The translations under genes and the position numbers were made by a program. Shown here piece by piece: positions 7,450-51,053 of a DNA stretch of 64,000 nt. Numbering within the stretch: position 1 is the stretch's first letter; each line of letters starts with the position of its first letter. Origin of the DNA: an uncultured Gammaproteobacteria bacterium (GTDB lineage: Bacteria > Patescibacteriota > Patescibacteriia > Patescibacteriales > GWC2-42-12); assembly GCA_964560005.1 (NCBI GenBank), contig CAZLKB010000002.1:64381-128380 (forward strand), given 5' to 3'. Below the pieces are notes generated by a model. It did no database searches, was not told where the DNA came from, and saw only the letters and a list, made by a program, of their open reading frames with translations.

Positions 7450-8757
7450 ATGAAAGTAACTTTGTTGGAAGTATATTCACCGCGGCCGCAATACATTAAT
7501 AAAGATGTCATGGGAGAATACGGCATGGTGGCGCAAATTGGCGATTCTTTTTTGGCTAAAATTCTTGAGGCGTCAAAAAAGAAGTCGGTTAATATTCCGG
7601 TTTTTGCCTTGGGGTATTTGGCGGCAATACTGAAGAAAAACGGCCATCAAGTTGAATATAAATTTAACGAAATTCCGGCTGATGCGGATTTGGTTATCAT
7701 TCCTTCCTCTATAGTAGATTATAAGTTCGAGCTGTCATTCGCCCGAAAAATAAAGCAAGAAAACAGCAAGGCAAAAATTGGTTTTTTTGGTCCCTTTGCC
7801 TCGGTTATGCCCGAGCCGTATCTGGCAGTCGCGGATTTTGTAATAGTCGATGAACCTGAGCAGGTGATTGATAAGATAAGCGACCATTGGCTGCCGCAGG
7901 GAAAAATAATCGGTCAGAAAGTGGAAAATTTAGACGCTTTGCCTTTTCCGGTCTGGGATATATTTCCTTTAAAAAAATATTCCTATCGGCCTCTTTTAAA
8001 ACCCCGTCCCTTTGTGACCGTATTATCAAGCCGCGGCTGCACTTTTAATTGTCCCTATTGCCCCTATAAAGCTTATTATGGACATTTAAGGCAGAGGAGC
8101 GCCGTTTCAGTGATCGGAGAATTAAAGTATTTAAAAGCAACCTATGGTATTAAATCCGTGCAATTTCGAGACCCCTTATTTACCAGCCAAAGAGACCGCG
8201 CTCTGGCCATTGCCGATGGCATAATCGCCAATCATTTGAATATATTCTGGGGCTGCGAGACTCATGTTAACTGTTTAGATTATGAATTGATTGATAAATT
8301 ATACGACGCCGGTTTAAGAAGCATAAATTTAGGTATAGAGTCGTCGGATATAGAAGTGCTGGCCGGGGCTTCGCGTTTTTCCGCGCCCAAAAGCAAGGAG
8401 GCGGATATAATTAATTATTGCCAAAAAAAAGGAGTCCGGGTCGCGGCTTTTTATGTCTTTGGTTTTCCCGAGGATACCGAGGAAACCATTGAACGTACCA
8501 TTGGTTATGCGAAGAAGTTGAATACTGTTGTGGCTCAATTTTTTATTTTAACTCCTTTCCCCGGCACCGCCCTATATCGGGAGATGGCGGATAAGATTAC
8601 AGAGAAAGATTGGGAAAAGTTTAATAGTTTTAATCCGGTTTTCAAACATCCTAATTTATCAGCTCAGCAACTTTTGTCTCTTAAAGAAAAAGCTTTTGTG
8701 TCTTATTATTTTAGGTTTAGATATTTAATAAAATATTGGTTTAAAATATTATTTTAA
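7450..8757 (+). CDS. B12-binding domain radical SAM enzyme (paralog A)
   Basis: N-terminal Rossmann-like B12-binding region followed by the CxxxCxxC cluster SSRGCTFNCPYCPY and a radical SAM core (RSINLGIESS). Confidence 0.85.
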   Translation: MKVTLLEVYSPRPQYINKDVMGEYGMVAQIGDSFLAKILEASKKKSVNIPVFALGYLAAILKKNGHQVEYKFNEIPADADLVIIPSSIVDYKFELSFARKIKQENSKAKIGFFGPFASVMPEPYLAVADFVIVDEPEQVIDKISDHWLPQGKIIGQKVENLDALPFPVWDIFPLKKYSYRPLLKPRPFVTVLSSRGCTFNCPYCPYKAYYGHLRQRSAVSVIGELKYLKATYGIKSVQFRDPLFTSQRDRALAIADGIIANHLNIFWGCETHVNCLDYELIDKLYDAGLRSINLGIESSDIEVLAGASRFSAPKSKEADIINYCQKKGVRVAAFYVFGFPEDTEETIERTIGYAKKLNTVVAQFFILTPFPGTALYREMADKITEKDWEKFNSFNPVFKHPNLSAQQLLSLKEKAFVSYYFRFRYLIKYWFKILF

Positions 8758-8780
8758 AGGATTATTCATAAACGGAAGTA

Positions 8781-8928
8781 GTTGGGGAAAAAAAATTTAT
8801 TTTGAGTGAATACAAAATTGTATTATTTTTTATTAAAATTATTACATATACTTTAAAAAATAAATATAATTTTAATAAAAAATACTCAAATTTTGTCTTG
8901 AGCAAAAAACAAATTTTTTTACCCCAAC
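8781..8928. repeat. Long imperfect palindromic intergenic element (member 1 of 2)
   Basis: Outer arms gttgggg(a)8ttt / aaa(t)7accccaac. Perfect inner 17-bp stem tattttttattaaaatt (8824-8840) / aattttaataaaaaata (8868-8884). Shares the 16-mer AAATTTGAGTATTTTT (minus strand, 8878-8893) with 49562-49577. Confidence 0.7.
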
Positions 8929-8965
8929 AACTGCATTATATTAAAATGTTTGAAGATAATGTATT

Positions 8966-9790
8966 ATGAAAATATTAATTACCGGTAGCCAAGGATTTCT
9001 AGGCAAGCATTTAATACCTCAATTAAAGGCCGATGGGCATAATTGTATTTTTTTTACTGGCGATATTCGCAATAAGAAAGATGTGATTAAGTTATGGGAA
9101 GAAAAAGTTGATATTATCGTTCATTTAGCGGCTCAGATTAAAGGTAAAGACAGCCGGTTGTTTTATGAAGTTAATCAGGCCGGGACCGAAAACATATTAG
9201 AAATATGCCGCGAAATCAAGCCCCGCAGTTTTATTTTTTTATCTAGTATTAGAGTTTTATCCGCCTATCAAAATCCCTATAGTTTATCTAAGAAGGCGGC
9301 GGAGGCGGCGGTGATTAAATCCGGAGTGCCATATATTATTCTTAGGCCAAGCCTGCTTTATGGGCCGGGTGATAAAAATAATTTAGGATTTTTTTTCTCG
9401 CTTTTAGCTCGTTTTCCGGTTGTCCCGATTCATAATTTTAAAATTCAGCCGTTGTTCGTCGGCGATTTGGTAAAAATTATCGCCGGCTGCTTAAATTATA
9501 AAACCAATCAAATTATCAATATTACCGGCGAAGAGACGGTCAGCCTCGATGATCTTTTAAGGCAAGCCAAACCATTGCTTGATCGCCATTCTTATATTTT
9601 ACGCCTGCCATGGTTTTTTATTTGGTTTTTAAAAATAATATCAAGCCTGCCCCTTTTTCCTTTCCCCTGGTGGCAAATTAGGCCGTTATTAAGCAATGAA
9701 ATTTTTAAGAGCGATCCTTGGCCGGTTCTATTTAAAATTAAGCCGACCAAGCTAAGCGATGGCTTGAAGCAGACACTGAATAATCAATAA
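8966..9790 (+). CDS. NAD-dependent epimerase/dehydratase (SDR)
   Basis: Motif ILITGSQGFLGKHL (GxxGxxG) and a YSLSK (YxxxK) catalytic motif. Confidence 0.75.
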   Translation: MKILITGSQGFLGKHLIPQLKADGHNCIFFTGDIRNKKDVIKLWEEKVDIIVHLAAQIKGKDSRLFYEVNQAGTENILEICREIKPRSFIFLSSIRVLSAYQNPYSLSKKAAEAAVIKSGVPYIILRPSLLYGPGDKNNLGFFFSLLARFPVVPIHNFKIQPLFVGDLVKIIAGCLNYKTNQIINITGEETVSLDDLLRQAKPLLDRHSYILRLPWFFIWFLKIISSLPLFPFPWWQIRPLLSNEIFKSDPWPVLFKIKPTKLSDGLKQTLNNQ

Positions 9791-9792
9791 TT

Positions 9793-11208
9793 ATGAAAAG
9801 ATTAAAAGTTTTATTATTAAAACCCTATAGTCAAGTCGATGAATTAATCCCTCCTTTTAGTCTGGGCTATTTAGCAACCGCGATTAGGGAAAAACACGAC
9901 GTAACTATTTTGGACTGCCTTAAGGAAAAGCTGCCGCCGAATAAATTGGAACCAATATTAAAAAGCCATCAGTATGATGTGGTTTGTTTGCAAGTGTTTA
10001 CCTTTCATATTCCCGTAGCTTTAGAGTATATAAAAATTATCAATAGAATTTTACCGCCAGCCAGGATAATTTTAGGCGGCCCGCATCCGTCGGCTGACCC
10101 GGAAAATATTTTTAGTTTATTTCCGCAAATCGATTGGGCTTTTATCGGCGAAGCGGAAATTGGCCTGCCAAAGTTATTGGAATTTATAGCTTTGAATAAT
10201 CCGGTATCGGAGAGTTTGAATGATATACCCGGCCTGATTTGGCGCCGGTCGGACAAGGTTATTGTCAACCAGCAAGTTTTTTGCGTAGATATTGATCAGT
10301 TCGGCATGCCGGCTTGGGACTTGATACGCCCCGACACTTATCCGTTTGCTCCCCACGGCGGTTTTTTTAAGAATTACCCGATTGCGCCGATTATTATTTC
10401 CCGGGGCTGCCCATTTTCCTGCACCTATTGCTCCGGCCGGATCGTTTCCGGGAGGAGAATTCGCTATCGCAGCGTAGTCAAGGTTATTGAAGAAATAAAA
10501 TTACTCTATCATAAATACGGAATCAGAGAAATCCACATAGAAGATGATAATTTTACTCATAACCATGAGTTGGTAAAAGAATTTTGTCGAGAGTTAAAAG
10601 AAAATAAATTGGCCATTAGCTGGACCTGCCCCAATGGCGTGCGGCTTGACAGCCTAACCGAAGATTTGCTTAAGACCATGAAAGAGGCGGGTTTATATTT
10701 TATTTCCGTGGGCATAGAATCGGGATCCGATAAGGTGCTTAAAGATATGAAGAAAAGCTTAACCACCCGGGAAATCAGAGATAAGATTAATTTAATAAAA
10801 AAATGCGGCCTGGAGGTTTCCGGATTTTTTATTATCGGGTATCCTACCGAAACTAGGGAAGATATTGAGAAAACCATTGATTTCGCCTGCAGTTTAAGTT
10901 TAACCAGGGCCGGGTTCTTTTTATTTAAACCCTTTCCTGGCTCTGATATCGCCCGCGAACTGGTTAAAAGGGGAGAATGGCAGTTTAACAATTCGGCCGA
11001 AGCTTGGAGTAAATTTATTTTGGCCGATGCGGTTTATGCTCCCCCGGGGTTTACTTTAAAAGAAATAAAACAATGGCGTAAAAAAGCTTTACGCCGGTTC
11101 TATTTGAGGCCGCGGATAATTATTAATTTTATTAAAGCTATACGCGGACCGAAACATTTTTTGCTTATTATAAAAAGAATTTATAGCTGGCTCTGGCTGG
11201 CAAAATAA
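9793..11208 (+). CDS. B12-binding domain radical SAM enzyme (paralog B)
   Basis: Cluster ISRGCPFSCTYCSG. B12-domain-like N-terminus (LGYLATAIREKHDVTILD). Core motif FISVGIESGS. Confidence 0.85.
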   Translation: MKRLKVLLLKPYSQVDELIPPFSLGYLATAIREKHDVTILDCLKEKLPPNKLEPILKSHQYDVVCLQVFTFHIPVALEYIKIINRILPPARIILGGPHPSADPENIFSLFPQIDWAFIGEAEIGLPKLLEFIALNNPVSESLNDIPGLIWRRSDKVIVNQQVFCVDIDQFGMPAWDLIRPDTYPFAPHGGFFKNYPIAPIIISRGCPFSCTYCSGRIVSGRRIRYRSVVKVIEEIKLLYHKYGIREIHIEDDNFTHNHELVKEFCRELKENKLAISWTCPNGVRLDSLTEDLLKTMKEAGLYFISVGIESGSDKVLKDMKKSLTTREIRDKINLIKKCGLEVSGFFIIGYPTETREDIEKTIDFACSLSLTRAGFFLFKPFPGSDIARELVKRGEWQFNNSAEAWSKFILADAVYAPPGFTLKEIKQWRKKALRRFYLRPRIIINFIKAIRGPKHFLLIIKRIYSWLWLAK

Positions 11209-11233
11209 ATAATAAAGAAAAAATTAATAATTT

Positions 11234-11926
11234 ATGAAACTTTCTATAATCATTCCAGCCTATAATGAAAAAGACACTATCACCCAAATTTTAAACAAAA
11301 TGGAAGGGTTGGATTTGGGCGTAGAAAAAGAAATTATTATTATTGACGACTATTCTACTGATGGCACGCGGGAGATTCTTAAGCAATACCAAAATAAGTA
11401 TCAGATCCTATATCATGATAAAAATTACGGCAAAGGCCGGGCTCTGCGCAGCGGATTAGTTAAGGCCACCGGTGATTATACCGTTATTCAAGATGCCGAT
11501 TTGGAATATGACCCAAACGATTTTAAGACCATGCTCAAGAAAATAACGGAAACTGGCGGACAGGCTGTCTATGGATCGCGCCGACTTCAACATAGTTATC
11601 TTAGAAGGCGCCATTCCGGCCATATTTTTGCTATCGGCGGAATTTTTTTAACCTGGCTGGCCAACTTTTTATACGACATCAATATTACCGATGAACCGAC
11701 CTGCTATAAGATGTTTAAAACCGATTTACTGAAGGAATTGAGTTTGGAATGCGAAGGGTTTGAGTTTTGCCCGGAGGTGACCGCCAAGATCGCTAAAAGA
11801 AAAATAAAAATTTATGAGGTGCCGATTAATTATTACCCCCGGCATAAAAATGAAGGCAAAAAGATTAAGTGGCAAGACGCGGTTACGGCCGTTCGGGTGT
11901 TATTTAAATATAGATTTAAAAAATAA
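11234..11926 (+). CDS. GT2 glycosyltransferase (polyprenyl-phosphate sugar synthase-like)
   Basis: Motifs LSIIIPAYNEKDTI, IIIIDDYSTDGT and QDADLEYDP. Paralog of 6743..7441. Confidence 0.85.
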   Translation: MKLSIIIPAYNEKDTITQILNKMEGLDLGVEKEIIIIDDYSTDGTREILKQYQNKYQILYHDKNYGKGRALRSGLVKATGDYTVIQDADLEYDPNDFKTMLKKITETGGQAVYGSRRLQHSYLRRRHSGHIFAIGGIFLTWLANFLYDINITDEPTCYKMFKTDLLKELSLECEGFEFCPEVTAKIAKRKIKIYEVPINYYPRHKNEGKKIKWQDAVTAVRVLFKYRFKK

Positions 11927-11927
11927 A

Positions 11928-13328
11928 ATGTCTAAAGTATTATTAATAAATCCGCCATGGGTGATCGGTGAAGACAGGAATTTATGGCAGGATGTCGGCA
12001 GTTGCTGGCCAAGTCTGGGTTTGGCTTATATTGCCGCGGTTTTAGAAAAATCCGGCCACCGGGTTAAATATTTGGATTATCCGGCGATGCACTACACGGT
12101 TAATGATACGGCTAAAGCCCTGGCCGATAATAAGGAAAATTTTGATTATATCGGCCTTAGCGCTACCACGCCGTTGGTTAATAACGCACTTGCGATTGCC
12201 AAGGTAGCTAAGAAAATATTTCCTAAAGCTAAAACGGTTTTCGGCGGAGTTCACCCCTCGGTTTTACCCGACGAGGTAATGGCTCATGAGGAGGTTGATT
12301 TCGTAGCCATCGATGAAGGTGAGGAGAGTATGAGCGAGCTGGCCAGCGGGAAAAATCCGGCAGAAATTTTAGGTCTCTGCTATAAATTAGACGGTCAAAT
12401 TGTTAAAAATGCTCCTCGTCCGTTGATTAAAAATTTAGATGAAATTCCGCCTCCGGCCTATCATCTCTTACCTATGGATAAATATTTTCCGGCCGTTGGC
12501 AGTTTTAAGAGGTTGCCGGTTATGATTATGTTTGCCACCCGCGGCTGTCCCGGGCGCTGCACTTTTTGCTACCGTACCTTTCGCGGGATCGTCAGAAAAC
12601 GGTCGGCTCGAAATATTATTGATGAGATAAATATATTGCAGAGAGATTATGGCATAAAAGAAGTGGCTTTTTATGACGATACTTTTACCTTGTTTAAAGA
12701 GGTAGTTCGTGAATTTTGTGATATAATTAAAAAAGAGAAAATTGACCTGACCTGGTCCTGCTTTACCCGGGTTGACCACATCAATGAAGATCTCTTAAAG
12801 ATAATGAAACAAGCGGGCTGCCATTTAATATTATTTGGTATTGAGTCGGCCGATGAGCAGATTTTAAAAAATATAAATAAAAAGATTTCTTTAGATCAAG
12901 CGATTCAAGCGGTCAGAGCCTCTCGTAAAATCGGCATTGAAACCAGAGCCTCTTTTATGATCGGCAATCAAGGCGAGACCGAAGAAACGATTAAAAAAAC
13001 CATTGCATTCGCCATTAAATTGGACCCGGATGAAGTGCAGTTTAATATTGCTACGGCCTATCCGGGAACCGAATTATTCGCTTGGGCTAAAGAGCTGGGG
13101 TACATAAAAAGTTTTAATTGGGACGACTATAGCATGTCAAATGTAGTTTTAGAAATTCCGGGATTACCTCGTGAGAAAATGCAGTATTATTACGAGCTGG
13201 CTCATCGCAAATTTTATTTTCGGCCTAAAGTAATAATCCGCCGCCTCGCCCATATCAGAAGCTGGGAGCAATTTATTCAGGAAATTAAGGGCGGTTTGGC
13301 TTTAATAAAATTAATTTTTAAATTTTAA
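11928..13328 (+). CDS. B12-binding domain radical SAM enzyme (paralog C)
   Basis: I place the start at the ATG at 11928 (MSKVLLINPPW), 1 nt after the upstream stop. The track ORF from 11814 overlaps the GT2 gene. Cluster ATRGCPGRCTFCYR. Confidence 0.85.
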   Translation: MSKVLLINPPWVIGEDRNLWQDVGSCWPSLGLAYIAAVLEKSGHRVKYLDYPAMHYTVNDTAKALADNKENFDYIGLSATTPLVNNALAIAKVAKKIFPKAKTVFGGVHPSVLPDEVMAHEEVDFVAIDEGEESMSELASGKNPAEILGLCYKLDGQIVKNAPRPLIKNLDEIPPPAYHLLPMDKYFPAVGSFKRLPVMIMFATRGCPGRCTFCYRTFRGIVRKRSARNIIDEINILQRDYGIKEVAFYDDTFTLFKEVVREFCDIIKKEKIDLTWSCFTRVDHINEDLLKIMKQAGCHLILFGIESADEQILKNINKKISLDQAIQAVRASRKIGIETRASFMIGNQGETEETIKKTIAFAIKLDPDEVQFNIATAYPGTELFAWAKELGYIKSFNWDDYSMSNVVLEIPGLPREKMQYYYELAHRKFYFRPKVIIRRLAHIRSWEQFIQEIKGGLALIKLIFKF

Positions 13329-13331
13329 CCC

Positions 13332-14048
13332 ATGAAAGAACTGTCAATTATAATCCCGGCGTATAATGAGGAATTAATTTTAGAGGAAGAAATGAAAAAA
13401 ATTATTTTTTCCATGGGAAAAATTTTGGCCGGAGCGGAGTATGAAATATTAGTTGTTGAAAACGGCAGCACCGATCGAACCAAGGAAATAATTTTAAAGC
13501 TTGTGAAAGAATATCCGATTATTAGGGCGATAAATCTTCCTCGGGCCGGTTATGGTTTGGCTTTAAAGGCCGGCCTTTTAGCAGGCGATGGAAAAAATTT
13601 AGCTATTTTTAATGTTGATTTTTGGGACGTAGAATTTATTAAGCAGGCGCTGGGGTTAATTGCTGATTACGATCTGGTGATTGGTTCAAAAAATATGCCG
13701 GGCGCACGCGACCAGCGGAATCTACTAAGGCGATTTGTCACTAAAGCATTTAATATTTTTTTAAGCTTATTTTTTGGTTTCAAGGGCACGGATACGCACG
13801 GAATTAAGCTCGCCTCCAGGGAGAAAATTATTTCTGTTGTGGCTGAATGTAAAACCGACCGAGCCGTATTTGACACGGAGTTTGTGCTTCGGTCCCAGCG
13901 GGCCGGTTTAAGGCTGACTGAAATCCCGGTAAATTGCGTTGAAAAAAGAAAAACCAGGTTTAAGATTATGAGAAGCACCTGGCAGACGGTTAAAGATTTA
14001 ATTATTCTTTTTATAGTTTTGCATAAACATGATGATAAACAATATTAA
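13332..14048 (+). CDS. GT2 glycosyltransferase
   Basis: Motifs LSIIIPAYNEE and ILVVENGSTDRT, with a GT-A fold pattern. Overlaps the next gene by 20 nt. Confidence 0.8.
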   Translation: MKELSIIIPAYNEELILEEEMKKIIFSMGKILAGAEYEILVVENGSTDRTKEIILKLVKEYPIIRAINLPRAGYGLALKAGLLAGDGKNLAIFNVDFWDVEFIKQALGLIADYDLVIGSKNMPGARDQRNLLRRFVTKAFNIFLSLFFGFKGTDTHGIKLASREKIISVVAECKTDRAVFDTEFVLRSQRAGLRLTEIPVNCVEKRKTRFKIMRSTWQTVKDLIILFIVLHKHDDKQY

Positions 14049-15474
14049 AAAGATAATGCCGGAAGGCAAATGGTTTAATTTTTGCCTGGGTTTTATTTTC
14101 ATAATTTTTTTAGCCTTAATTTTAAAAGGTTTTCCGGATAGCCCTTCGCCCTGGTATGACGAAGGCATAAATTTAAACCTAGCAAAAAATTTGGCGCAAA
14201 ACGGGGTTTATGATTTTTCTACGGGCCCGGGCCAGTCTACCGGCAAGCCCTATTTATTGATTACTACCAATTATCCGCTTTTGGCTCCAATGGCAATATT
14301 TTTTAAATTGTTTGGTGCGGGATTACATCAGGAAAAAATCGTTATGGCCGTTTTTTTAATCGCCTTCTTCTGGTTGTTTTATTTGGCGGCAAAAAAATAT
14401 TATGGTAAGAAGGCGGCGTTAATCGGTTTAATATTAGTAACCGGTTTTTTGCCTTTGTATGGCAATGGCAAAGGCGCTTTAGGCGAAATACCGGGTATAG
14501 TTTATTTTTTATCCGGCTTATTAATTTTAGATAAGAAAAAATGGTGGCAGTTGATTTTAGCCGGGCTGTTATTTGGCCTGGCAGCCGCTACCAAGTCGTT
14601 ATATATGCTTTTTATTCCGGCCTTAGCCGGCGGTGAAATTTGGCTGGCGATAAAAAATAAAAAAATTGACTGGCGCAGATGGTGCTATCTGGCGGCCGGA
14701 GGCCTTTTACCCGTCTGCCTTTGGGTTTGGACCATACTACCGGCCAGTTTAAACCAGCAATCGTTTTCTGAATTTATCGCTTATTATTCTAATCCATATA
14801 ATGTGGCCCCCCAGGGCGTCATGTTTAAAAATTTTCTAAGATTCTTTACCGAAACAACCCCGCTACACTTTCTTTCATTGTTCGCCGTATTCCTGATTAG
14901 TAAGATTATCAAGCGGAGGATCAGCCAAATGGAAATTATAGTATGTTTTTTTATTGCTCTTGACTGGTTTTTTTATCTAAAAACTCCGGGTTGGTATAGA
15001 TATTTTTTCCCGGCGCATATCTTGCTTTTTATTTTATTTCCTTTTGCCCTTATGGAAATAGCCGGTAGCCTTTGGGGCGGCAAATTTAGAAAACAGACTA
15101 TATTTATTGCCGTAACCGTAGTTCTTTTGTCGCAAATGGCTCCTATGTTTACCAATATCAACACCAAGCTTTATTATAATCCGACGCCGAGGATTTTCGC
15201 TAATTATATAAATAAAAATATTCCTGCCGATAAGGATATTTTAGTGGTGAATAATCCGGCAGTCGCCTTTATGATAGATCGGGATAAAGTTTGGCAGCGT
15301 TTGGCTATCAATCCCTATCTAACGGTCGGCCGCGATTGGTTCGGCAGAAGCGAGTACCCGGATTACGTGGTTTTAAATGACGGTGGCAACGAGCTTTTGG
15401 GGGAAAATGATTTAACGCCTAAATACAAAAAAGCCTATCAGGCCGATAATGCCATATTGTGGCAGAAACAATAA
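14029..15474 (+). CDS. Polytopic membrane glycosyltransferase, GT-C fold (ArnT-like)
   Basis: 481 aa, multi-TM. First loop SPSPWYDEGINLNLAKNLAQNGVY has an acidic DE motif typical of GT-C enzymes. Confidence 0.7.
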   Translation: MMINNIKKIMPEGKWFNFCLGFIFIIFLALILKGFPDSPSPWYDEGINLNLAKNLAQNGVYDFSTGPGQSTGKPYLLITTNYPLLAPMAIFFKLFGAGLHQEKIVMAVFLIAFFWLFYLAAKKYYGKKAALIGLILVTGFLPLYGNGKGALGEIPGIVYFLSGLLILDKKKWWQLILAGLLFGLAAATKSLYMLFIPALAGGEIWLAIKNKKIDWRRWCYLAAGGLLPVCLWVWTILPASLNQQSFSEFIAYYSNPYNVAPQGVMFKNFLRFFTETTPLHFLSLFAVFLISKIIKRRISQMEIIVCFFIALDWFFYLKTPGWYRYFFPAHILLFILFPFALMEIAGSLWGGKFRKQTIFIAVTVVLLSQMAPMFTNINTKLYYNPTPRIFANYINKNIPADKDILVVNNPAVAFMIDRDKVWQRLAINPYLTVGRDWFGRSEYPDYVVLNDGGNELLGENDLTPKYKKAYQADNAILWQKQ

Positions 15475-15482
15475 TTTTTTTT

Positions 15483-16817
15483 ATGTCTGGAGTTAAGCAA
15501 ATTTATAAACATACCATATTTTGGATAATCATAGGGTCATTTTTAGTCTCTGCTCTTTACGCCTTTCATTTTAAGATTGAGCCGTCGGTAGACGCGCGAG
15601 CCTATAATCAGATTGCCTGGAATCTAGTGACCGGAAACGGTTACCGCGAAAATTTAGAAACCGACTTGGCTCACGATTACGCGATTGCCCGTGTCGGACC
15701 GCTGTATGAATATTTTTTAGCCGGTATTTATAAAATCTTCGGCCATCACTACGAGCCGGTTTGGCTGATCCAGGCCTTACTTCACGCTTTAAGCGCCTGG
15801 TTGGTTTATCTTGCTACAATATTAATATTGGTGGATAACCAAAAGAAAAAAACAGCCGGTTTGTGGGCGGCAGCAATTTTTGCCTTTTATCCTGATTTAA
15901 TAGAAATTTCGGCCATGCTGATGACGGAAACCTTTTCTTTATTCTTTATTTGTCTGATGGTTTATCTTTTTTTTCGTGTTGTTGGGCGGCCCGATTATCG
16001 GCTGATAGCGGTGCTGGGGCTAACGGCCGGGTTGGCGGTATTGGCGCGGCCGCCGGTGATTTTTTTGATTCCGGTTATGTTATTTTATTTTTGGAGAAAA
16101 AAATTGTGGCGCCAGGCAACCCTATTTACATTAATTATTATTTTGGTTTTTATTCCCTGGACCTGGAGAAATTACCAAGCTTACGGACAGCTAATGCCCT
16201 TCGGCGCAGCCGGCAATTTTAATTTTTGGATCGGCAATCGCCATGGCGGCGACGGCGAACAGGGGCCGACCAAGGAACAGATTGAATTCGTCACTACCCG
16301 CGAGCTTAAAGAAGTTAACGGCGAATCCATGAAGCAGTTTAAAAGTTTTTTATATAGCCACCCCTTTGAATTTATTAAATTGACCTGCTTAAGGATAAAC
16401 AAATATTTTAGCGTAATCAGGCCTATGGGGTTTTGGTTTTATCAGGAAGGGCTGGGGCAATTGTTATTTCTTTTATCTTCGGCGGCCGCTTCGGTTATAT
16501 TATTTGTCCTTGGTTTAGGCGGAATTTTAAAAACCGTTTTCTTAAGAGATAAACGGCTTTATTATTTATTAGCCATGGCGGCGTTTACCCCTTTAATTAT
16601 TTTTGTCACTGTTGTAGAAACCAGATATCGTTTTCAGATTTATCCGCTCTTAGCCATTTTCGCCGGTTATTTTATGGTCACACCACCGAAAGACCAGCCA
16701 AGGTGGTGGCAGGGAAGAATTTTTTGGTTGGCGGCCGGTTTAGTTTTTTTAAATGGCCTGATTGACGCGTTTTTGAGCCTGGAAAGACTTAAGGAAAGAT
16801 TCGGTTTATTTTTTTAA
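15483..16817 (+). CDS. Polytopic membrane glycosyltransferase, GT-C fold (GT39-like)
   Basis: Start moved to the ATG at 15483 (MSGVKQ), which avoids overlap; the track start is 15459. First loop VDARAYNQIAWNLVTGNGY, many TM helices. Confidence 0.7.
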   Translation: MSGVKQIYKHTIFWIIIGSFLVSALYAFHFKIEPSVDARAYNQIAWNLVTGNGYRENLETDLAHDYAIARVGPLYEYFLAGIYKIFGHHYEPVWLIQALLHALSAWLVYLATILILVDNQKKKTAGLWAAAIFAFYPDLIEISAMLMTETFSLFFICLMVYLFFRVVGRPDYRLIAVLGLTAGLAVLARPPVIFLIPVMLFYFWRKKLWRQATLFTLIIILVFIPWTWRNYQAYGQLMPFGAAGNFNFWIGNRHGGDGEQGPTKEQIEFVTTRELKEVNGESMKQFKSFLYSHPFEFIKLTCLRINKYFSVIRPMGFWFYQEGLGQLLFLLSSAAASVILFVLGLGGILKTVFLRDKRLYYLLAMAAFTPLIIFVTVVETRYRFQIYPLLAIFAGYFMVTPPKDQPRWWQGRIFWLAAGLVFLNGLIDAFLSLERLKERFGLFF

Positions 16818-30905: not shown

Positions 30906-30906
30906 T

Positions 30907-37925: not shown

Positions 37926-37933
37926 AGCAGTAT

Positions 37934-38182
37934 ATGACTGAAGAAATAAAATCAAACGCGGTTTATACCACATCTGAAACGCAAAAATTGCTTAAGATAA
38001 GCAATAGCACGATTAAGCGCATGCTTAAGAAGGGCCTGATTAAAGCTAATAAAGTCGGCGGACAATATCGTATTATGGGTAAAGAAATTCTTCGCTTAGT
38101 CTCACCAGAGATTGAAAAACGAGCAATACAATCTTATTTAAATATTAAGCAGAAAGTCGTTGATAGGATAAATAAGTGGTAA
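37934..38182 (+). CDS. Small helix-turn-helix DNA-binding protein (excisionase/MerR-like HTH_17)
   Basis: 82 aa. YTTSETQKLLKISNSTIKRMLKKGLIKANKVGGQYRI matches the excisionase-family HTH pattern. Confidence 0.75.
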   Translation: MTEEIKSNAVYTTSETQKLLKISNSTIKRMLKKGLIKANKVGGQYRIMGKEILRLVSPEIEKRAIQSYLNIKQKVVDRINKW

Positions 38183-38185
38183 ATT

Positions 38186-40735: not shown

Positions 40736-40753
40736 AAATTAATTAAGAATTTT

Positions 40754-42067: not shown

Positions 42068-42079
42068 TTTAGAATAAAT

Positions 42080-42883
42080 ATGATTGGTGGAAAAATAAAA
42101 GCGGCTCTGGGTCAGATGAAAATTATTTGGCAAGACAAAAGGAAAAATAGCGACAAATGCGAAATTATGGTACAACGGGCTTCGCGAGCGAAAGCTGATG
42201 TCGTTATATTTCCGGAACTTACCTTAACCGGATTTACAATGAATGTAAGAAAGGCGGCTGAGGATGTTGGCCATAGCCCCACCGTATCATTTTTTAAAGG
42301 GTTAGCCATAAAATATAAAATTAATATTGTTTTCGGTGTTGCTTTTAAATTTAAAGATGGAAAAAGGGGGCGGAATATGGCAATGATGATTGATGCTTCA
42401 GGCAGACTGCGCGCTAAATATCAGAAGATCCACCCGTTTAGTTTTGCTCGAGAGGAAAAATATTACCTTCCAGGAGATAAATTATCTTTGTTCAAAATAA
42501 AAAGATTTAAATGCGCCTTGGCTATTTGTTATGATTTGCGTTTCCCCGGTCTTTTTGAGGCGCTGGCGAAGCATCGGCCGGACATCGTAATAATTATAGC
42601 CAATTGGCCGAAAGCTAGGATCAGGCATTGGCAAACTCTTTTATCCGCCAGGTCGCTTGATATGCAATCTTATATCATCGGAGTTAATCGGGTTGGCAAG
42701 GGAATAAATTTGGAATATAACGGATATTCAAGCGTTTATTCTTTTAAGGGAGAAAAATTGGTAGAATACAAAAATAAAGAAACGTTGGGTTTTGTTAATT
42801 TAGAAAAAAAAGCAGTTGACCATTATAGGCGCGTCTTTACTTCCTTGCGAGATAAAAGGCATTATTTATATTTATCATTATAA
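42080..42883 (+). CDS. Carbon-nitrogen hydrolase (nitrilase superfamily)
   Basis: E-K-C triad contexts FPELTLTGF, YQKIHPF and ALAICYDLRFP. Confidence 0.8.
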   Translation: MIGGKIKAALGQMKIIWQDKRKNSDKCEIMVQRASRAKADVVIFPELTLTGFTMNVRKAAEDVGHSPTVSFFKGLAIKYKINIVFGVAFKFKDGKRGRNMAMMIDASGRLRAKYQKIHPFSFAREEKYYLPGDKLSLFKIKRFKCALAICYDLRFPGLFEALAKHRPDIVIIIANWPKARIRHWQTLLSARSLDMQSYIIGVNRVGKGINLEYNGYSSVYSFKGEKLVEYKNKETLGFVNLEKKAVDHYRRVFTSLRDKRHYLYLSL

Positions 42884-42893
42884 AATTAACATT

Positions 42894-43895
42894 ATGAAAT
42901 TTTTGCAAATCGGTTTAGGATCAATGGGTAAAAGAAGAATCAGAAATTTATTATTTCATAAAATAAATAAGGATAATATTTATGGTTTTGATATTTCCTC
43001 TAAGCGATGTGATGAAGTCGCTAAAGAGTATGGGATTAAAACTATAAATAATTTCAATCAGGCGCTTAAAGAATTCAAGCCGGACGCTTTTATAATCTCC
43101 ACGCCGCCCGACTTGCACGAGCGATACTTTTTATATGCCGCCAAGCATAAATTGCATTTTTTTACGGAAGTACCGACCACCGATAAGGGTTATAAAGAAT
43201 TAATGCCGCTGTTAAATAAAAGCTTCGTAGCCGCGCCGTCCTGCACTTTCCGCTACGTTCCGGCGATAAAAAAGATCAAAGAATTGTTATATAAAGGCAC
43301 AATCGGAAAAGTGTTGTCTTTTAATCATTATTTAGGTCAGTATTTGCCCGATTGGCATCCTTATGAGGATTATCGCCGGATATATTTTGCCCAGAAAGAA
43401 ACCGGCGGTTGTCGTGAGTTTTTACCGCATGAGCTTGTTTGGCTGGCTGACATTTTTCGAAGCAAAACAGATAAAGCGATTGGAGTATATAATAAAATTT
43501 CTAAACTAAAAATTTCAGCCGATGATATTTATTGCGTTATCGTGCAATTTAAAAATGGCGTTATCGGCAACATGATGATTGATCTATTAAACAGAGCGGC
43601 ATCCAGGACTTTGCGCATTATCGGTAGTGAAGGAACTTTAGATTGGGACTGGTTGAATTATGAAATAAAATTGCATTTACCAGATAAAAAAGAAAAAATA
43701 ATAAAGTTACCAAACATAAAAAAACTTGCCCATTATAATACAACGGAAGACATATATAGAGCGGAAATGAAAGATTTTTTATTAGCAATTGCGAGGCGCA
43801 AAAAATTTCCGTATACTTTCAAGGAAAATTGGGGGATGTTAAAAGTTTTTTATAAAGTTGACGGTAACCACAAAAAGTATTTTGTTAAAGTTTAA
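42894..43895 (+). CDS. Gfo/Idh/MocA-family oxidoreductase
   Basis: I place the start at the ATG at 42894 (MKFLQIGLGSMGKRR, Rossmann N-terminus). The track start at 42816 overlaps the upstream gene. Confidence 0.75.
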   Translation: MKFLQIGLGSMGKRRIRNLLFHKINKDNIYGFDISSKRCDEVAKEYGIKTINNFNQALKEFKPDAFIISTPPDLHERYFLYAAKHKLHFFTEVPTTDKGYKELMPLLNKSFVAAPSCTFRYVPAIKKIKELLYKGTIGKVLSFNHYLGQYLPDWHPYEDYRRIYFAQKETGGCREFLPHELVWLADIFRSKTDKAIGVYNKISKLKISADDIYCVIVQFKNGVIGNMMIDLLNRAASRTLRIIGSEGTLDWDWLNYEIKLHLPDKKEKIIKLPNIKKLAHYNTTEDIYRAEMKDFLLAIARRKKFPYTFKENWGMLKVFYKVDGNHKKYFVKV

Positions 43896-43904
43896 TTTAA
43901 GTTT

Positions 43905-44945
43905 ATGACAAATTATGTTACTATAGGGAAACGTAAAATTGGATCCAGTTTTCCACCATTGGTAATAGCGGAAATTGGTATTAATCATGAAGGCAGCATA
44001 CTAAAAGCCAGGCGGATGATTAGGGACGCGTATTTAGCTGGCGCCGAATGTGTTAAATTCCAATGCCATATAGTGGAAGATGAAATGGTGCCGATTGCCA
44101 AAAAAATTATTCCCGGCCACGCCAAAGAATCTATCTGGGACATCATGAAAAAATGCGCCTTTTCCGAGAGACAAGACCGCGAGCTTAAAAAATACGTTGA
44201 AAGCCTGGGTATGATTTATTTGTCCACGCCTTTTTCCCGCGCCGGCGCTGATCGCCTGCAGAAGATGAAAGTTAAGGCTTTTAAAATCGGTTCAGGCGAA
44301 TGCAATAATTATCCTCTGGTTGAGCATATTGCCAAATTCGGCCGGCCGGTAATTCTAAGTACGGGCATGAATAATCTGGCATCCATAAAAAAGAGCTTGG
44401 CGATTATTGGAAAACATAAAATACCGTACGCCATTTTAAATTGCACCTCCATGTACCCGGCGCCGTATGAAAAAGTGCGTTTAGGCGTGATTTTAGAACT
44501 GGAAAAGGCCTTTCCTAAAGCTGTTATCGGTTTAAGCGACCATTCAATCGGTAATTACGCTTGTTTCGGGGCCGTGGCCTTAGGCGCGAGCATACTGGAA
44601 AAGCATTTTACCTCATCAAAAAAATGGCCGGGTCCGGATATCGCTTTGTCGATTAACCCCCGTGAATTAAAAGATTTAATTTTTGGGGTAAAAGCGGTTT
44701 GGCAATCTCTGGGCGGCGAAAAAAATATTTTGCCGGAAGAAGAAGGAATTATTAAATTCGCTTACGCCTGCGTGGTTTCAATCAAAGATATTAATAGGGG
44801 CGAGAAATTAAGCGAAAAAAATATTTGGGTTAAGCGACCGGGAACCGGAGAAATCAAAGCGATTGAATATGATAAAATTATAGGCAAACATGCTAGTAAA
44901 GATATAAAAAAAGACGTTCAGTTAAAATTCAAAGATATCTTATGA
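43905..44945 (+). CDS. neuB: N-acylneuraminate (nonulosonate) synthase, NeuB family with SAF domain (LegI-like)
   Basis: LVIAEIGINHEGS, KFQCH, KIGSGECNNYPL and LSDHS motifs. The C-terminal SAF-like tail ends in an ATGA overlap with neuC. Confidence 0.9.
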   Translation: MTNYVTIGKRKIGSSFPPLVIAEIGINHEGSILKARRMIRDAYLAGAECVKFQCHIVEDEMVPIAKKIIPGHAKESIWDIMKKCAFSERQDRELKKYVESLGMIYLSTPFSRAGADRLQKMKVKAFKIGSGECNNYPLVEHIAKFGRPVILSTGMNNLASIKKSLAIIGKHKIPYAILNCTSMYPAPYEKVRLGVILELEKAFPKAVIGLSDHSIGNYACFGAVALGASILEKHFTSSKKWPGPDIALSINPRELKDLIFGVKAVWQSLGGEKNILPEEEGIIKFAYACVVSIKDINRGEKLSEKNIWVKRPGTGEIKAIEYDKIIGKHASKDIKKDVQLKFKDIL

Positions 44946-46102
44946 AACAAAACCGAAAAAGAAAAATTTTATTCGTGACCGAACGCCGGGCTGATTATTC
45001 AAGATTAAAGCCGATTATGAAAGCCGTTCAGAGGAGCAAAAAACTTGAATTACAGCTGGTAGTTACGGGTAATCATTTACTTAAAAATTTTGGTGAAACT
45101 AAAAAAGTGGTTGACGCCGATAGCTTTAAAATTAACGCTATTTTTCCGATTTTTTACGAAAACGATCAGGATGATGCTATCCATATGGTAAAAGCCATGG
45201 GCAAGGCTTTAATCGGCCTGGCTGATATTTTTACCCGCTTAAAACCGGACATTGTGTTTTGCGGCTTTGATTTAGGTACTCATCTGGCAGCCGCTATCGC
45301 CGGCTGCCACCTTAATATCCATGTCGCCCATATCCAAGGCGGTGAAGTCAGCGGCACGATTGACGAAATTATTCGCCATGCTACCACAAAATTTTCCCAC
45401 ATTCATTTCGCCGCTACTGCCAAGAGCATTAAAAGAATAATAAAATTAGGCGAAAACCCTGAATATGTTTATAATGTTGGCAGCCCGAGCCTGGATACTA
45501 TTAAGAGTATAAAATATTATTCGAAGAAGAAGATAATCGAGAAATACGGCCTTGATCCAAAGAAAAAGCTGATAATTTTTTCCCAGCACCCGGTAACCAC
45601 GGAAGTTGATGAAGTAGGAAGTCAAATACAAAGCAGCATTAACGCCCTGAAGCGGGTTAATAAAAAATATGGCACGCAAGTTTTAGCCATTTATTCAAAT
45701 AATGACGCCGGCGGAAAGAGAATTATCCGCCAGTTGAAGCGGTCAGGTATAAAGGTGGTTCCGCATATAGTATATGAAGATTATTTGCGTCTATTTAAAG
45801 TGGCGGATCTATTGGTTGGAAATTCCAGCGCCGGTTTTCATGAAGCTCCCTCGTTCGGTTTGCCTACGGTAAATATCGGCACCAGGCAAAGGCTAAGGGA
45901 GCGTGGCGATAATATTATTGACGCAGATAATGATGAAAAAAAAATTATTAAAGCTATTACTAAGGGATTATTCGATAAGAAATTTATAAAAAAAGTTAAG
46001 GTCGGGAAAAATCCATACGACAACGGGATTACCTCGGAAAAAATTGTCAAGATTTTAGAAAATATTGATTTGCCGCCTATTCAAAAAAACATAACCTATT
46101 AA
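44942..46102 (+). CDS. neuC: UDP-N-acetylglucosamine 2-epimerase (hydrolysing), NeuC/LegG-like
   Basis: VTERRADYSRLKP and HIQGGEVSGTIDEIIRHATTKFSHIHF are signatures of hydrolysing NeuC-type epimerases. Confidence 0.9.
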   Translation: MKQNRKRKILFVTERRADYSRLKPIMKAVQRSKKLELQLVVTGNHLLKNFGETKKVVDADSFKINAIFPIFYENDQDDAIHMVKAMGKALIGLADIFTRLKPDIVFCGFDLGTHLAAAIAGCHLNIHVAHIQGGEVSGTIDEIIRHATTKFSHIHFAATAKSIKRIIKLGENPEYVYNVGSPSLDTIKSIKYYSKKKIIEKYGLDPKKKLIIFSQHPVTTEVDEVGSQIQSSINALKRVNKKYGTQVLAIYSNNDAGGKRIIRQLKRSGIKVVPHIVYEDYLRLFKVADLLVGNSSAGFHEAPSFGLPTVNIGTRQRLRERGDNIIDADNDEKKIIKAITKGLFDKKFIKKVKVGKNPYDNGITSEKIVKILENIDLPPIQKNITY

Positions 46103-49521: not shown

Positions 49522-49524
49522 AAA

Positions 49525-49623
49525 TGGCAGAGGCAAGGATATCGCCTTCTCGCTTAAGACGAAATTTGAGTATTTTTCTTAAAATTATTAAATTTTAAGA
49601 AAAATAATACAATGCCTCTGCCA
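49525..49623. repeat. Palindromic intergenic element (member 2 of 2)
   Basis: Outer stem tggcagaggca (49525-49535) / tgcctctgcca (49613-49623). Perfect inner 16-bp stem tatttttcttaaaatt (49571-49586) / aattttaagaaaaata (49591-49606), loop atta. Shares AAATTTGAGTATTTTT (49562-49577) with element 1. Confidence 0.7.
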
Positions 49624-49655
49624 GCCGCGGTTAAATTAATTGTAGAAGTTATTTT

Positions 49656-51053
49656 ATGAATAAATTGAAAATTTTAGCGATAAATGTTTGCTTAAGGCCG
49701 TATATGGAAAAAATTTTATTTCCCCTGGGTTTATCATATATAACCGGAGCGGTTCGCCGCGCCGGGTATAATTTAGAGCTTCTGGATTTAGATAAAGACA
49801 GAAAAACCGACGCGGAAATTGAAGAATTTTTAAAAAATCAAGATTTTGACGTCGTGCTTTTAGGCTGCATCGTAACAGGCTATAAAATGGTTAAAGAGTT
49901 AAGCGCCATTATCAGGAAAATAAATAAGCAAGCGGTGATAGTCGTCGGTAATTCGGTAGCGGATTCAATTCCCAGTATATTATTGGAAAAAACCGAGGCA
50001 GATATTGCGGTTATGGGAGAAGGCGAAATAACTATCGTGGAAGTTCTTGATAAATTAAGCCAAGGCCAGACGCTGGAATCAGTTAGAGGGATTTGGTATA
50101 AAAAAGGAAAAAAAATATTTAATAATCCCAGGCGATCTGAAGTGGTGGATATTAACGCCCTACCATTTCCTGATTGGGAAAGTTTTGACATGGAGTCCTA
50201 TATTGAAAAAATGAAATTAGCTTCCACATCTTTTCCTCTGCCGCAGGAAAAAGTCAGGCCTTTTTTAATCAACACCGCCAGAGGCTGTCCCTTCCGCTGC
50301 ACTTTTTGCTATCAGGTTTTTCAGGCCTACCCCTACCGGCATCGTTCGGTTGATTCAATTATTGCTGAAATAAAAGAGTTGCAGAAAAGATATGGGGTAA
50401 ATAGCATATTTTTTAATGATGAGCTGTCTTTTCCGACCAAAGAGAGTGTAAAAGAATTCGTTGATAAGATATTGAGTGAAAAATTAACTTTTTTTTGGTT
50501 GGCCGATTGCCGTTCTAATCTTTTCAACACGGAAGCTGACTTGCCATTACTTAAGAGATTAAAAGAATCTGGTTGCATCGGGTTAGGCTATTCGTTAGAA
50601 TCAGCTAACCAGGAAATTTTAAAGGTCATGAATAAACGGCTGAATATTAACGATTTTATTACCCAGAAAAAACTTCTAGATAGGGCCGGGATTATCAGCT
50701 GGACCAGTCTGGTTTTCGGCTATCCGCCGGAGACTAAAGAAACCATTAAACAAACCATGGATTTATGTTTAGAGCTGGGTATTTATCCCAGTACCGGTTA
50801 TCTTTTGCCTCAGCCGGGCACGCCCATGTACGATTATATTGTTAAAAAGGGGCTGGTGAAAGACGAAGAAGCGTATCTTCTCTCAATGGGGGATCGCCAG
50901 GATTTAAGAATTAATTTAACTAAAATGGCGGACGATGAATTTCAGGATGAAGTAAAAAAGCATTTACAACGAATTTCCGATAAATTAAATTTATGCTTGT
51001 CGGCCGAAACACTGATTAAAACGATTAATTATAAAGTAGTTGATAAAAAATAG
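49656..51053 (+). CDS. B12-binding domain radical SAM enzyme (paralog F)
   Basis: Cluster TARGCPFRCTFCYQ, B12-like N-terminus (LGLSYITGAVRRAGYNLELLDL), core motif GLGYSLESAN. Confidence 0.85.
   Translation: MNKLKILAINVCLRPYMEKILFPLGLSYITGAVRRAGYNLELLDLDKDRKTDAEIEEFLKNQDFDVVLLGCIVTGYKMVKELSAIIRKINKQAVIVVGNSVADSIPSILLEKTEADIAVMGEGEITIVEVLDKLSQGQTLESVRGIWYKKGKKIFNNPRRSEVVDINALPFPDWESFDMESYIEKMKLASTSFPLPQEKVRPFLINTARGCPFRCTFCYQVFQAYPYRHRSVDSIIAEIKELQKRYGVNSIFFNDELSFPTKESVKEFVDKILSEKLTFFWLADCRSNLFNTEADLPLLKRLKESGCIGLGYSLESANQEILKVMNKRLNINDFITQKKLLDRAGIISWTSLVFGYPPETKETIKQTMDLCLELGIYPSTGYLLPQPGTPMYDYIVKKGLVKDEEAYLLSMGDRQDLRINLTKMADDEFQDEVKKHLQRISDKLNLCLSAETLIKTINYKVVDKK

Follow-up and report, generated by a model that had tools for sequence, protein, structure and literature searches.

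The 64,000-nucleotide stretch analysed here (the window; contig CAZLKB010000002.1 of assembly GCA_964560005.1, positions 64,381 to 128,380) carries a surface-glycan locus that encodes six radical S-adenosylmethionine (SAM) enzymes, named R1 to R6 in the order of their genes. We propose, with a probability of roughly 0.55, that R1–R6 are non-redundant sugar-tailoring enzymes of one huge Patescibacteria surface-glycan operon, each belonging to its own conserved subfamily and serving its own sub-pathway. As judged from sequence, some two to five of the six may plausibly use cobalamin, and one is unlikely to do so. An earlier examination of the same DNA from its letters alone (the sequence-only reading) had concluded that the six genes imply heavy cobalamin dependence, but the step from a B12-binding-like domain to such dependence is not safe. 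The conserved arrangement of a family 2 glycosyltransferase (GT2), a radical SAM enzyme and a membrane glycosyltransferase of the GT-C type is a more novel lead than B12 dependence.

All six open reading frames (ORFs) reported in the sequence-only reading are present on the plus strand (Table 1), with the cluster motifs CTFNCPYC, CPFSCTYC, CPGRCTFC, CLFKCHYC, CPFSCSYC and CPFRCTFC in R1 to R6, respectively, and no other ORF in the window contains a CX3CX2C or CX3CX3C motif. The Radical_SAM family PF04055 (Pfam gathering score 29.5 bits) is matched by all six proteins (E 5e-12 to 7e-31, 46.6–108 bits). The B12-binding family PF02310 (gathering score 32.1 bits) is found above threshold in R2–R6 (56–90 bits), while R1 stays below it at 20.7 bits. 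A B12-binding-like N-terminal domain had been assigned to all six, and this holds for R2–R6; in R1 the domain is sub-threshold, though homologous to the N-terminal domain of R3 (hhalign 98%, E 1e-13). The start of the R3 gene lies at 11928 rather than 11814, as homologs share the start MSKVLLINPPW and the upstream GT2 gene stops at 11926.

In end-to-end alignment, R1–R6 share only 24–31% pairwise identity over nearly their full length, so their split must be ancient, in agreement with the earlier view that they are diverged paralogs and no recent tandem duplication. Degenerate pseudo-enzymes, which had been considered as a possibility, were not seen: all six keep the three cysteines, and R1, R3, R4 and R5 belong to large conserved families. 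Among the matches listed, at least 120 homolog clusters each were found for R3 (59–82% identity, in Patescibacteria), R1 (45–82%) and R4 (53–75%, distributed across Patescibacteria classes), and the R5 family comprises 2,446 representative clusters at E<=1e-30. Other glycan loci of 15–21 kb, one of them from an Iainarchaeum archaeon, contain 3–4 radical SAM genes each, and six such genes in 44 kb of this kind of genome is far beyond chance.

R1–R6 are members of uncharacterised subfamilies within a known superfamily. The hopanoid enzyme HpnJ (TIGR03471, cut-off 577.6) scores 292 bits with R3, nearly over its full length, and 165 bits with R1. BchE (TIGR02026, cut-off 481) scores 205 bits with R3, 184 bits with R2 and 155 bits with R6, and no photosynthesis context accompanies these genes. 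The top NCBIfam model is the Sden_1168 P-methyltransferase for R4 (153 bits; cut-off 575) and the ladderane-lipid radical SAM enzyme for R5 (109 bits; cut-off 360). The scores for AprD4 (NF033070, cut-off 500) are 113.8 bits for R1 (barrel only), 104.3 for R3, 101.4 for R2, 55.9 for R6, 53.3 for R4 and 21.6 for R5. In the Protein Data Bank (PDB), AprD4 is the top sequence match for five of the six enzymes, with all of these matches confined to the barrel.

The surrounding genes are those of a glycan locus. The window holds an operon of about 62 kb with some 60 genes on the plus strand and a coding density of 96.6%; only two genes lie on the minus strand. When every gene was scanned with Pfam and NCBIfam, about 20 glycosyltransferases were found, including GT4 enzymes, five GT2 enzymes and two GT-C enzymes of the PMT_2/ArnT-like type (PMT_2, PF13231, above gathering score). 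The GT2s come closest to the NCBIfam models for AglJ, ArnC, PpgS and Dol-P-hexose transferase, each below its cut-off (the top score is 181 bits with ArnC, for which the cut-off is 529). Two GtrA domains exceed the gathering score of PF04138 (51.7 and 78.4 bits). A glycero-manno-heptose pathway (SIS isomerase, HAD phosphatase, HddA-like kinase, nucleotidyltransferase and transaldolase), two complete nonulosonic-acid sets (NeuB, CMP-transferase, PseB-like dehydratase and aminotransferases), and genes for export and assembly (an ABC exporter, two Capsule_synth proteins and an initiating Bac_transf) complete the inventory. Five class I methyltransferases are encoded as well, which confirms the previous count of eleven SAM-using enzymes. 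Named homologs of R1, R3 and R4 come from Portnoybacteria, Staskawiczbacteria, Giovannonibacteria, Niyogibacteria, Parcubacteria and Patescibacteria. Since these are names of the Patescibacteria, or candidate phyla radiation (CPR), the assumption of a reduced-genome lineage is correct, and the gene content bears out its glycan locus.

Cobalamin-contact motifs in R1 to R6

In class B radical SAM enzymes, cobalamin is bound base-off and has no histidine ligand, as seen in the structures of OxsB, TsrM, TokK and QCMT (PMC12931638). AprD4 and ArsL lie inside the B12 radical SAM sequence network, yet they bind no cobalamin (PMC12931638), so similarity at the level of the domain is insufficient to assign cobalamin use. 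Three cobalamin-contact motifs have been derived from OxsB, TsrM and TokK (PMC9204698). The first, G-x-S/T-x-X, lies on the beta3-alpha3 loop; the second, Gly-Gly, lies on beta4 and shapes the pocket that takes up the dimethylbenzimidazole tail; the third, Gly-Glu, opens alpha5.

All three motifs are complete in R3 (GLSAT / GG / GE) and in R5 (GISLV / GG / GE, the last within GEGE). They are found in part in R4 (GINSN / GG / GE), R2 (CLQVF, GIQIF in orthologs / GG / GE) and R6 (LLGCI / GN, GG in relatives / GE). In R1 none is found: all of them are degraded (IIPSS / FG / PE), and bulky residues occupy the positions of the glycine pocket. R3 and R5 are thus predicted to be likely cobalamin binders; binding by R2, R4 and R6 is plausible, and binding by R1 is unlikely. 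The alignment of the six paralogs is compatible with the supposed cobalamin dependence in R3 and R5, partly compatible with it in R2, R4 and R6, and speaks against it in R1.

Searches with the N-terminal domains gave further indications. The R3 domain profile matches the cobalamin domain of TokK (E 4.3e-4) and, weakly, OxsB, but not the N-terminal domain of AprD4; as a single sequence, the same domain retrieved from the PDB only noise and TokK at E 0.45. Across 41 sequences of the R3 family, down to 58% identity, the residues G106, G107, H109, E130 and E132 are invariant. By sequence, R3 is the best cobalamin-binding candidate of the six. PDB matches that extend into the N-terminal domain were also found for R2 (QCMT from residue 70, TokK from 61 and CysS from 48), for which cobalamin binding is plausible, and for R6 (CysS from residue 47, TokK from 64 and TsrM from 21). 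The window enzymes have in common with TokK, QCMT/MgmA, TsrM, CysS and OxsB that a five-stranded Rossmann domain at the N-terminus precedes the barrel, and R3 and R5 also carry the three motifs. Between these characterised cobalamin enzymes and the models from the window, fold similarity amounts to a template-modelling (TM) score of 0.6–0.74 at 16–22% identity. The Trp that follows the Cys motif in TokK is absent from the window enzymes, the C-terminal domains are unlike, and the substrates of TokK-type enzymes are carbapenems, peptides and nucleosides, whereas those of the window enzymes are presumably sugars.

Within the window, no Rfam family reaches its gathering score, so it contains no cobalamin riboswitch, and no corrinoid gene, cobalamin transporter or salvage gene was recognised there in the Pfam and NCBIfam gene scans. 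One line in a paper on groundwater CPR organisms, by which most metagenome-assembled genomes (MAGs) lack vitamin pathways "except cobalamin and thiamin", was too ambiguous and was not used. If two or more of the enzymes need cobalamin, the surface glycan synthesis of an organism with minimal biosynthesis would rely on B12 supplied by the community. For genome-scale metabolic inference, counts of radical SAM proteins with a Pfam "B12-binding" domain overestimate the dependence on cobalamin, given that the binding motifs have been lost in at least one of the six.

Conserved gene neighbours and a proposed scheme

R1 is proposed, by analogy, to be an AprD4-like, cobalamin-independent sugar 1,2-diol dehydratase. 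In the C3'-deoxygenation of apramycin, the radical SAM 1,2-diol dehydratase AprD4 removes the 3'-OH from an aminoglycoside sugar, after which the NADPH-dependent AprD3 reduces the ketone (PMC5461906). The AlphaFold2 (AF2) model of R1 (mean predicted local distance difference test score, pLDDT, 95.3) finds AprD4 (6FD2) as its top Foldseek match (TM 0.79, E 2e-26, 447 columns) at 22% structure-based identity. The runner-up, QCMT, is nine orders of magnitude weaker (TM 0.61, E 7e-17). The closest PDB sequence is again 6FD2 (E 1.2e-28, in the barrel). Like AprD4, R1 combines a Rossmann-like N-terminal domain with the barrel; the substrate of AprD4 is a sugar, and a reductase gene is the conserved next neighbour of R1. 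AprD4 binds no cobalamin, and R1 has lost the cobalamin motifs. In the R1 family, only 21 of 44 members match PF02310 even at E<=0.01. The unusual CX3CX3C motif of AprD4, seen as CPYPCRFYC in the sequence alignment, recurs in some R1 relatives: it is found (e.g. CPYSCSFYC) in 14 of 80 metagenome relatives and in relatives from two further loci, L004 and L005 (L-numbers denote related loci drawn from genome and metagenome collections).

The reductase neighbour is a short-chain dehydrogenase/reductase (SDR) encoded 208 bp downstream of R1 (gap 8758–8965), whose weak top NCBIfam matches include RmlD and a 4-keto-sugar reductase. In the 80 metagenome loci of the R1 family, an SDR is the next gene in 26 of the 43 that could be evaluated, and in L004, L017 and L018 the gene that comes directly after the R1-like one is a homolog of this SDR. 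The order in L017 (GT2, R1-like at 57% identity, SDR, two B12-type radical SAM genes, GT-C) matches that of window positions 6743–16817, and the Omnitrophica locus L018 has R1-like, SDR and B12-type radical SAM genes in a row. In a sister subfamily of R1 (36–41% identity, CPE[FH]CTYC), a DegT aminotransferase takes this place in 8 of 18 cases. A conserved SDR or DegT downstream would be expected if a keto-deoxy sugar were the product, and both kinds of partner act on keto sugars. SDR 8966 is likened to AprD3 by role. The two systems differ in setting, the AprD4/AprD3 pair belonging to an actinomycete aminoglycoside cluster and R1 to a CPR surface glycan with GT2 and GT-C genes.

R2 orthologs with 55–57% identity directly follow R1 in L019 and L036. 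The neighbourhood of R3 is conserved more widely. R3 orthologs (73–79% identity) occur in five Patescibacteria loci (L002–L005 and L015), in which a homolog of GT2 11234 lies directly 5' of the R3 ortholog (66–72% identity) and a GT-C like 15459 (57–65%) lies one to three genes 3' of it. The 5' GT2 is also found in L016 (52%) and in the Endomicrobiales locus L006 (44%), where GT2 and R3 are followed by a 10–11-transmembrane protein of about 610 aa. By sequence, HpnJ is the nearest named family of R3, and R3 is not a member of it. In the literature searched, we found no description of these families or of a radical SAM enzyme between a polyprenyl-phosphate-sugar synthase and a GT-C enzyme, and nothing relevant on CPR with B12 radical SAM enzymes or on radical SAM enzymes with heptose.

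Three-component periplasmic glycosylation is known from the systems of GtrA, GtrB and a Gtr-type GT-C, and of ArnC, ArnD, ArnE-F and ArnT. ArnD alters the lipid-linked sugar of the Arn pathway prior to transfer. The window likewise encodes candidates for such components, namely GT2s nearest to polyprenyl-phosphate-sugar synthases, a GtrA-family protein and GT-C enzymes, which may point to a lipid-linked substrate; unlike in the Gtr and Arn systems, its candidate modifiers between GT2 and GT-C are radical SAM enzymes.

On these comparisons, the following scheme can be drawn up. In a first module (6743–11208), GT2 6743 would load a sugar onto polyprenyl phosphate. R1 would abstract a hydrogen by way of the 5'-deoxyadenosyl radical and turn a vicinal diol into a deoxy-keto sugar without cobalamin, as AprD4 does. 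SDR 8966 would then reduce the ketone in the manner of AprD3, as the parallel with AprD4 and the conservation of the partner genes suggest, and R2 may alter the product further. In a second module (11234–16817), GT2 11234 would make a polyprenyl-phosphate-sugar and R3 would modify the lipid-linked sugar, most likely by cobalamin-dependent C-methylation or by another change that spares the anomeric centre. C-methylation is favoured because a ring contraction of the HpnJ type would break the donor bond that the GT-C enzymes need. By analogy with the Gtr and Arn systems, GtrA-family proteins may flip the lipid-linked sugar, and GT-C 14029 and 15459 may transfer it to an acceptor outside the membrane. 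The gene context further suggests that R4 tailors a heptose made by the surrounding GmhA-, HddA-, GmhB- and HddC-like genes, that R5 teams up with methyltransferase 35351 and that R6, whose neighbours are Capsule_synth and a PseB-like dehydratase, acts in the nonulosonic-acid branch.

Several points weigh against this interpretation. Neither R1–R6 nor the GT2s attain the cut-off of any NCBIfam equivalog model, so every functional name given here is an analogy. The HpnJ model gives R1 a better score (165 bits) than the AprD4 model does (114 bits against the cut-off of 500), the sequence match of R1 to AprD4 spans only the barrel, and R1 has the canonical motif CX3CX2C rather than CX3CX3C. The profile of its N-terminal domain has no PDB match, the N-terminal domain of AprD4 included, and the domain as a single sequence retrieves nothing from the PDB at E<=10. 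For these reasons (a score below cut-off, a canonical motif and an N-terminal profile without PDB match), R1 is described as working like AprD4, not as being AprD4. Moreover, AprD4 is the top fold match of R3 too (AF2 model pLDDT 84.5; TM 0.77, with QCMT at 0.67/0.74), so the overall fold cannot separate binders from non-binders. The cobalamin motifs were defined from just three or four crystal structures and were placed here by a MAFFT alignment of six sequences together with the AF2 secondary structure of R3 and R1. Lastly, adjacency to GT2 and GT-C genes is no proof of a lipid-linked substrate, and nucleotide sugars or the finished glycan could be the substrates instead.

A bolder and more tentative generalisation, to which we give clearly less credence than to the sugar-tailoring interpretation itself, is that GT2, AprD4-like radical SAM enzyme, SDR, one or two B12-type radical SAM enzymes and GT-C form an undescribed cassette common to Patescibacteria, DPANN archaea, Omnitrophica and Endomicrobia. 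In such a cassette, radical chemistry on the cytoplasmic face might first deoxygenate a polyprenyl-phosphate-linked sugar and next C-alkylate or rearrange it, after which GT-C would transfer the sugar to the cell surface, in a pathway at least partly tied to external cobalamin. If true, three-component glycosylation would have a radical-SAM-driven variant that makes unusual sugars in ultra-small episymbiotic cells.

CPR and DPANN cells are host-attached, and their surface glycans, probably central to this lifestyle, have an essentially unknown chemistry. Against this background, the locus commits six radical SAM enzymes and five methyltransferases to the tailoring of sugars, in modules that recur across phyla, the conserved arrangement extending over CPR, DPANN-like archaea, Omnitrophica and Endomicrobia. 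The assignments proposed are an AprD4/AprD3-like deoxygenation pair far outside antibiotic biosynthesis, a heptose-linked B12-type enzyme and the GT2-radical SAM-GT-C unit.

Alternative explanations

The most direct alternative takes all six proteins as genuine cobalamin-dependent class B enzymes, mostly C-methyltransferases, so that the glycan would need scavenged B12 for six steps. It can appeal to PF02310 in five of the six, to the homology of the R1 and R3 N-terminal domains (hhalign 98%) and to the matches of R2, R3 and R6 that reach into that domain, all of which are to proven binders (QCMT, TokK, CysS and TsrM); besides, C-methyltransferases are spread over every characterised group of class B radical SAM enzymes (PMC12931638). 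We consider it rather unlikely, as R1 misses both the Pfam threshold and all three motifs and is clearly nearest to the cobalamin-free AprD4, as the top models BchE, HpnJ and the ladderane enzyme lie in the sequence-similarity-network group to which the non-methylating members belong, and as the window is devoid of a cobalamin riboswitch, transporter or salvage gene. About equally improbable is the opposite extreme, in which none of the six uses cobalamin and the N-terminal Rossmann domain is retained, as in AprD4 and ArsL, as a relic with a structural or substrate-binding part in enzymes that dehydrate, epimerise or rearrange sugars by cobalamin-independent radical chemistry. AprD4 tops the PDB sequence matches of five of the six and the fold matches of both modelled proteins, AprD4 and ArsL share the sequence network without binding cobalamin, and a small genome would presumably benefit from avoiding a scarce cofactor. 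However, the sequence matches to AprD4 are limited to the barrel, the three contact motifs are kept in R3 and R5, with G106, G107 and E132 invariant in the R3 family, and the N-terminal profile of R3 picks the cobalamin domain of TokK instead of the N-terminal domain of AprD4.

Other readings change the substrate. The enzymes might act on the head groups or chains of membrane lipids, as enzymes of the HpnJ, ladderane or calditol-synthase type do, with their position in a glycan locus reflecting the clustering of envelope genes. In hopanoid side-chain synthesis, the GT2 HpnI adds N-acetylglucosamine, the deacetylase HpnK acts on it, and HpnJ then contracts the sugar ring to a cyclitol ether; the mechanism and cofactor need of HpnJ are uncharacterised (PMC13459092). 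Here, too, a GT2 would put a sugar on a lipid that a radical SAM enzyme with a B12 domain then remodels. HpnJ is the best-scoring NCBIfam model of R3 and R1, as the ladderane-lipid enzyme is of R5, and R5 has a hydrophobic tail. Yet these scores are far below the cut-offs (292 against 577.6, about half, for R3 and 109 against 360 for R5), no squalene-hopene cyclase, hopanoid or other lipid-synthesis gene is present in the 64 kb, and the partner genes are sugar enzymes (SDR, DegT, heptose, nonulosonic acid and GT-C). The GT-C genes downstream imply that the anomeric linkage is kept, whereas ring contraction of the HpnJ type would presumably destroy the glycosyl-phosphate bond on which GT-C depends. 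We regard action on lipids as improbable. Least credible of all is a natural-product cluster or one for ribosomally synthesised and post-translationally modified peptides (RiPPs), with the radical SAM enzymes tailoring a peptide or small molecule. Class B enzymes are common in RiPP and antibiotic clusters, and weak matches to the ApyD and RiPP C-methyltransferase models were obtained; but the window has no precursor peptide, polyketide synthase, non-ribosomal peptide synthetase or RiPP recognition gene, its gene content is of the polysaccharide type, and the families are kept across hundreds of Patescibacteria contigs in a glycan context.

Other features of the locus

The coordinates of the six enzymes and of the neighbouring genes are summarized in Table 1.

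Table 1. Radical SAM genes and other features of the 64-kb window (positions counted from its first nucleotide)
Feature	Position	Strand	Domains, scores and remarks
GT4 with fused second GtrA domain	1166-2599		PF04138
Class I methyltransferase	4727-5359	+	Methyltransf_23/11/25 and MetW matches
Polytopic membrane protein	5364-6746		No Pfam match; 10 hydrophobic segments
GT2, polyprenyl-phosphate-sugar synthase type	6743-7441	+	PF00535; directly upstream of R1
R1	7450-8757	+	PF04055 58 bits; PF02310 20.7 bits; radical SAM with decayed B12-type N-terminal domain
SDR (NAD-dependent epimerase/reductase)	8966-9790	+	PF01370, RmlD_sub_bind; candidate ketoreductase partner of R1
R2	9793-11208	+	PF02310 63.5 bits; PF04055 102 bits; class-B-type radical SAM
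GT2, polyprenyl-phosphate-sugar synthase type	11234-11926	+	PF00535; AglJ/PpgS/ArnC-type NCBIfam matches; upstream of R3
R3	11928-13328	+	PF02310 89.5 bits; PF04055 108 bits; class-B-type radical SAM
Second GT2 of R3 module	13332-14048	+	PF00535; 54% identical ortholog in L015 block
GT-C (PMT_2/ArnT-like)	14029-15474	+	PF13231; 8 predicted hydrophobic segments
GT-C (PMT_2/ArnT-like)	15459-16817	+	PF13231; 8 predicted hydrophobic segments
Class I methyltransferase	17923-18603		Methyltransf_23/11/25 and MetW matches
Heptose precursor genes (GmhA-like SIS isomerase, GmhB-like HAD phosphatase, transaldolase)	19865-21920	+	PF13580, PF13419, PF00923
Transaldolase/FSA-family gene	21186-21920		The transaldolase of the row above; amid heptose genes; also in L099 and L100
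GtrA-family membrane protein	21958-22650	+	PF04138; candidate flippase for polyprenyl-phosphate-sugars
Sugar-1-phosphate nucleotidyltransferase	24627-25301	+	PF00483; NCBIfam matches include HddC; directly upstream of R4
R4	25338-26855	+	PF02310 56 bits; PF04055 46.6 bits; class-B-type radical SAM amid heptose genes
ArnC-like GT2 with C-terminal transmembrane region	26889-27815	+	NF007986 181 bits over positions 8-312 of 316, below cut-off; 3 hydrophobic segments
FAD oxidoreductase	27812-28927	+	PF01266
HddA-like heptose kinase	28924-29922	+	HddA 139.8 bits; GHMP domains
Class I methyltransferase	30054-30905		Methyltransf_23/11/25 and MetW matches
Polytopic membrane protein	30907-32751		No Pfam match; 8 hydrophobic segments
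R5	33842-35341	+	PF02310 62.4 bits; PF04055 81 bits; class-B-type radical SAM; adjoins methyltransferase 35351
Class I methyltransferase	35351-36265	+	PF13489 89.8 bits; adjoins R5
Nonulosonic-acid sub-cluster	39995-46102		NeuB, CTP_transf_3, class III aminotransferase, PseB-like or DegT
R6	49656-51053	+	PF02310 61.9 bits; PF04055 70.8 bits; class-B-type, within nonulosonic-acid sub-cluster
Nonulosonic-acid sub-cluster	51138-60704		NeuB, CTP_transf_3, class III aminotransferase, PseB-like or DegT
Class I methyltransferase	58949-59638		Methyltransf_23/11/25 and MetW matches

R4 homologs stand in a comparable setting in L099 (Candidatus Niyogibacteria, complete genome CP066691.1) and L100, amid GHMP kinase, HAD, SIS, TAL_FSA and NTP-transferase genes. 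In such organisms, the pentose-phosphate pathway is often incomplete, and the transaldolase gene at 21186 presumably supplies sedoheptulose-7-phosphate locally.

At the C-terminus, R1–R3 share a conserved basic-aromatic tail (FYFRP.../YYFRFRYL...), and R5 has a hydrophobic segment at about residues 436–454. These are possible membrane-association elements, which would fit lipid-linked substrates. Related loci also contain radical SAM genes of the non-B12 type (Radical_SAM with SPASM, or Fer4_12), at L016:20040-20951, L018:6129-7097 and L018:13665-14822, so radical chemistry in related glycan clusters reaches beyond the class B type.

The loci of the R1 sister subfamily (L067–L098, e.g. L072:8001-9284) come mostly from soil metagenomes, and their CPE[FH]CTYC motif is invariant; the subfamily hints at a route to amino-deoxy sugars by a radical dehydratase and a transaminase. 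The Patescibacteria glycan locus L015 encodes a 721-aa fusion (L015:3334-5499) of B12-binding, radical SAM and class I Methyltransf_23 domains, the radical SAM half of which is closest to R3, not R5. Pairs of this kind can therefore be fused, which suggests that the class B radical SAM enzyme and the conventional SAM methyltransferase are directly coupled in function. The Patescibacteria-type GT2-R3-GT-C modules of L003 and L005 are near-identical (74–79%), though their MAGs are labelled Saccharibacteria and Gammaproteobacteria; the latter label probably reflects mis-binning or mislabelling.

The two nonulosonic-acid sub-clusters point to two different nine-carbon sugars within one glycan, and they additionally contain CN_hydrolase, GFO/IDH/MocA oxidoreductase, aldo-keto reductase, GNAT, DUF218 and hexapeptide acyltransferase genes. 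The polytopic membrane proteins at 5364 and 30907 are probably further GT-C enzymes or of the polymerase/ligase type; the former shares 30% identity with a PMT_2-annotated protein of L015. The biggest intergenic gap, 379 bp at 37807–38185, probably represents a divergent promoter region, with a minus-strand Capsule_synth gene on one side and the ABC exporter on the other. The operon ends (60701–62092) with genes for a WbqC-like protein and a PIG-L family de-N-acetylase, and a WbqC homolog also lies near the R1-like gene in the Omnitrophica locus L018.

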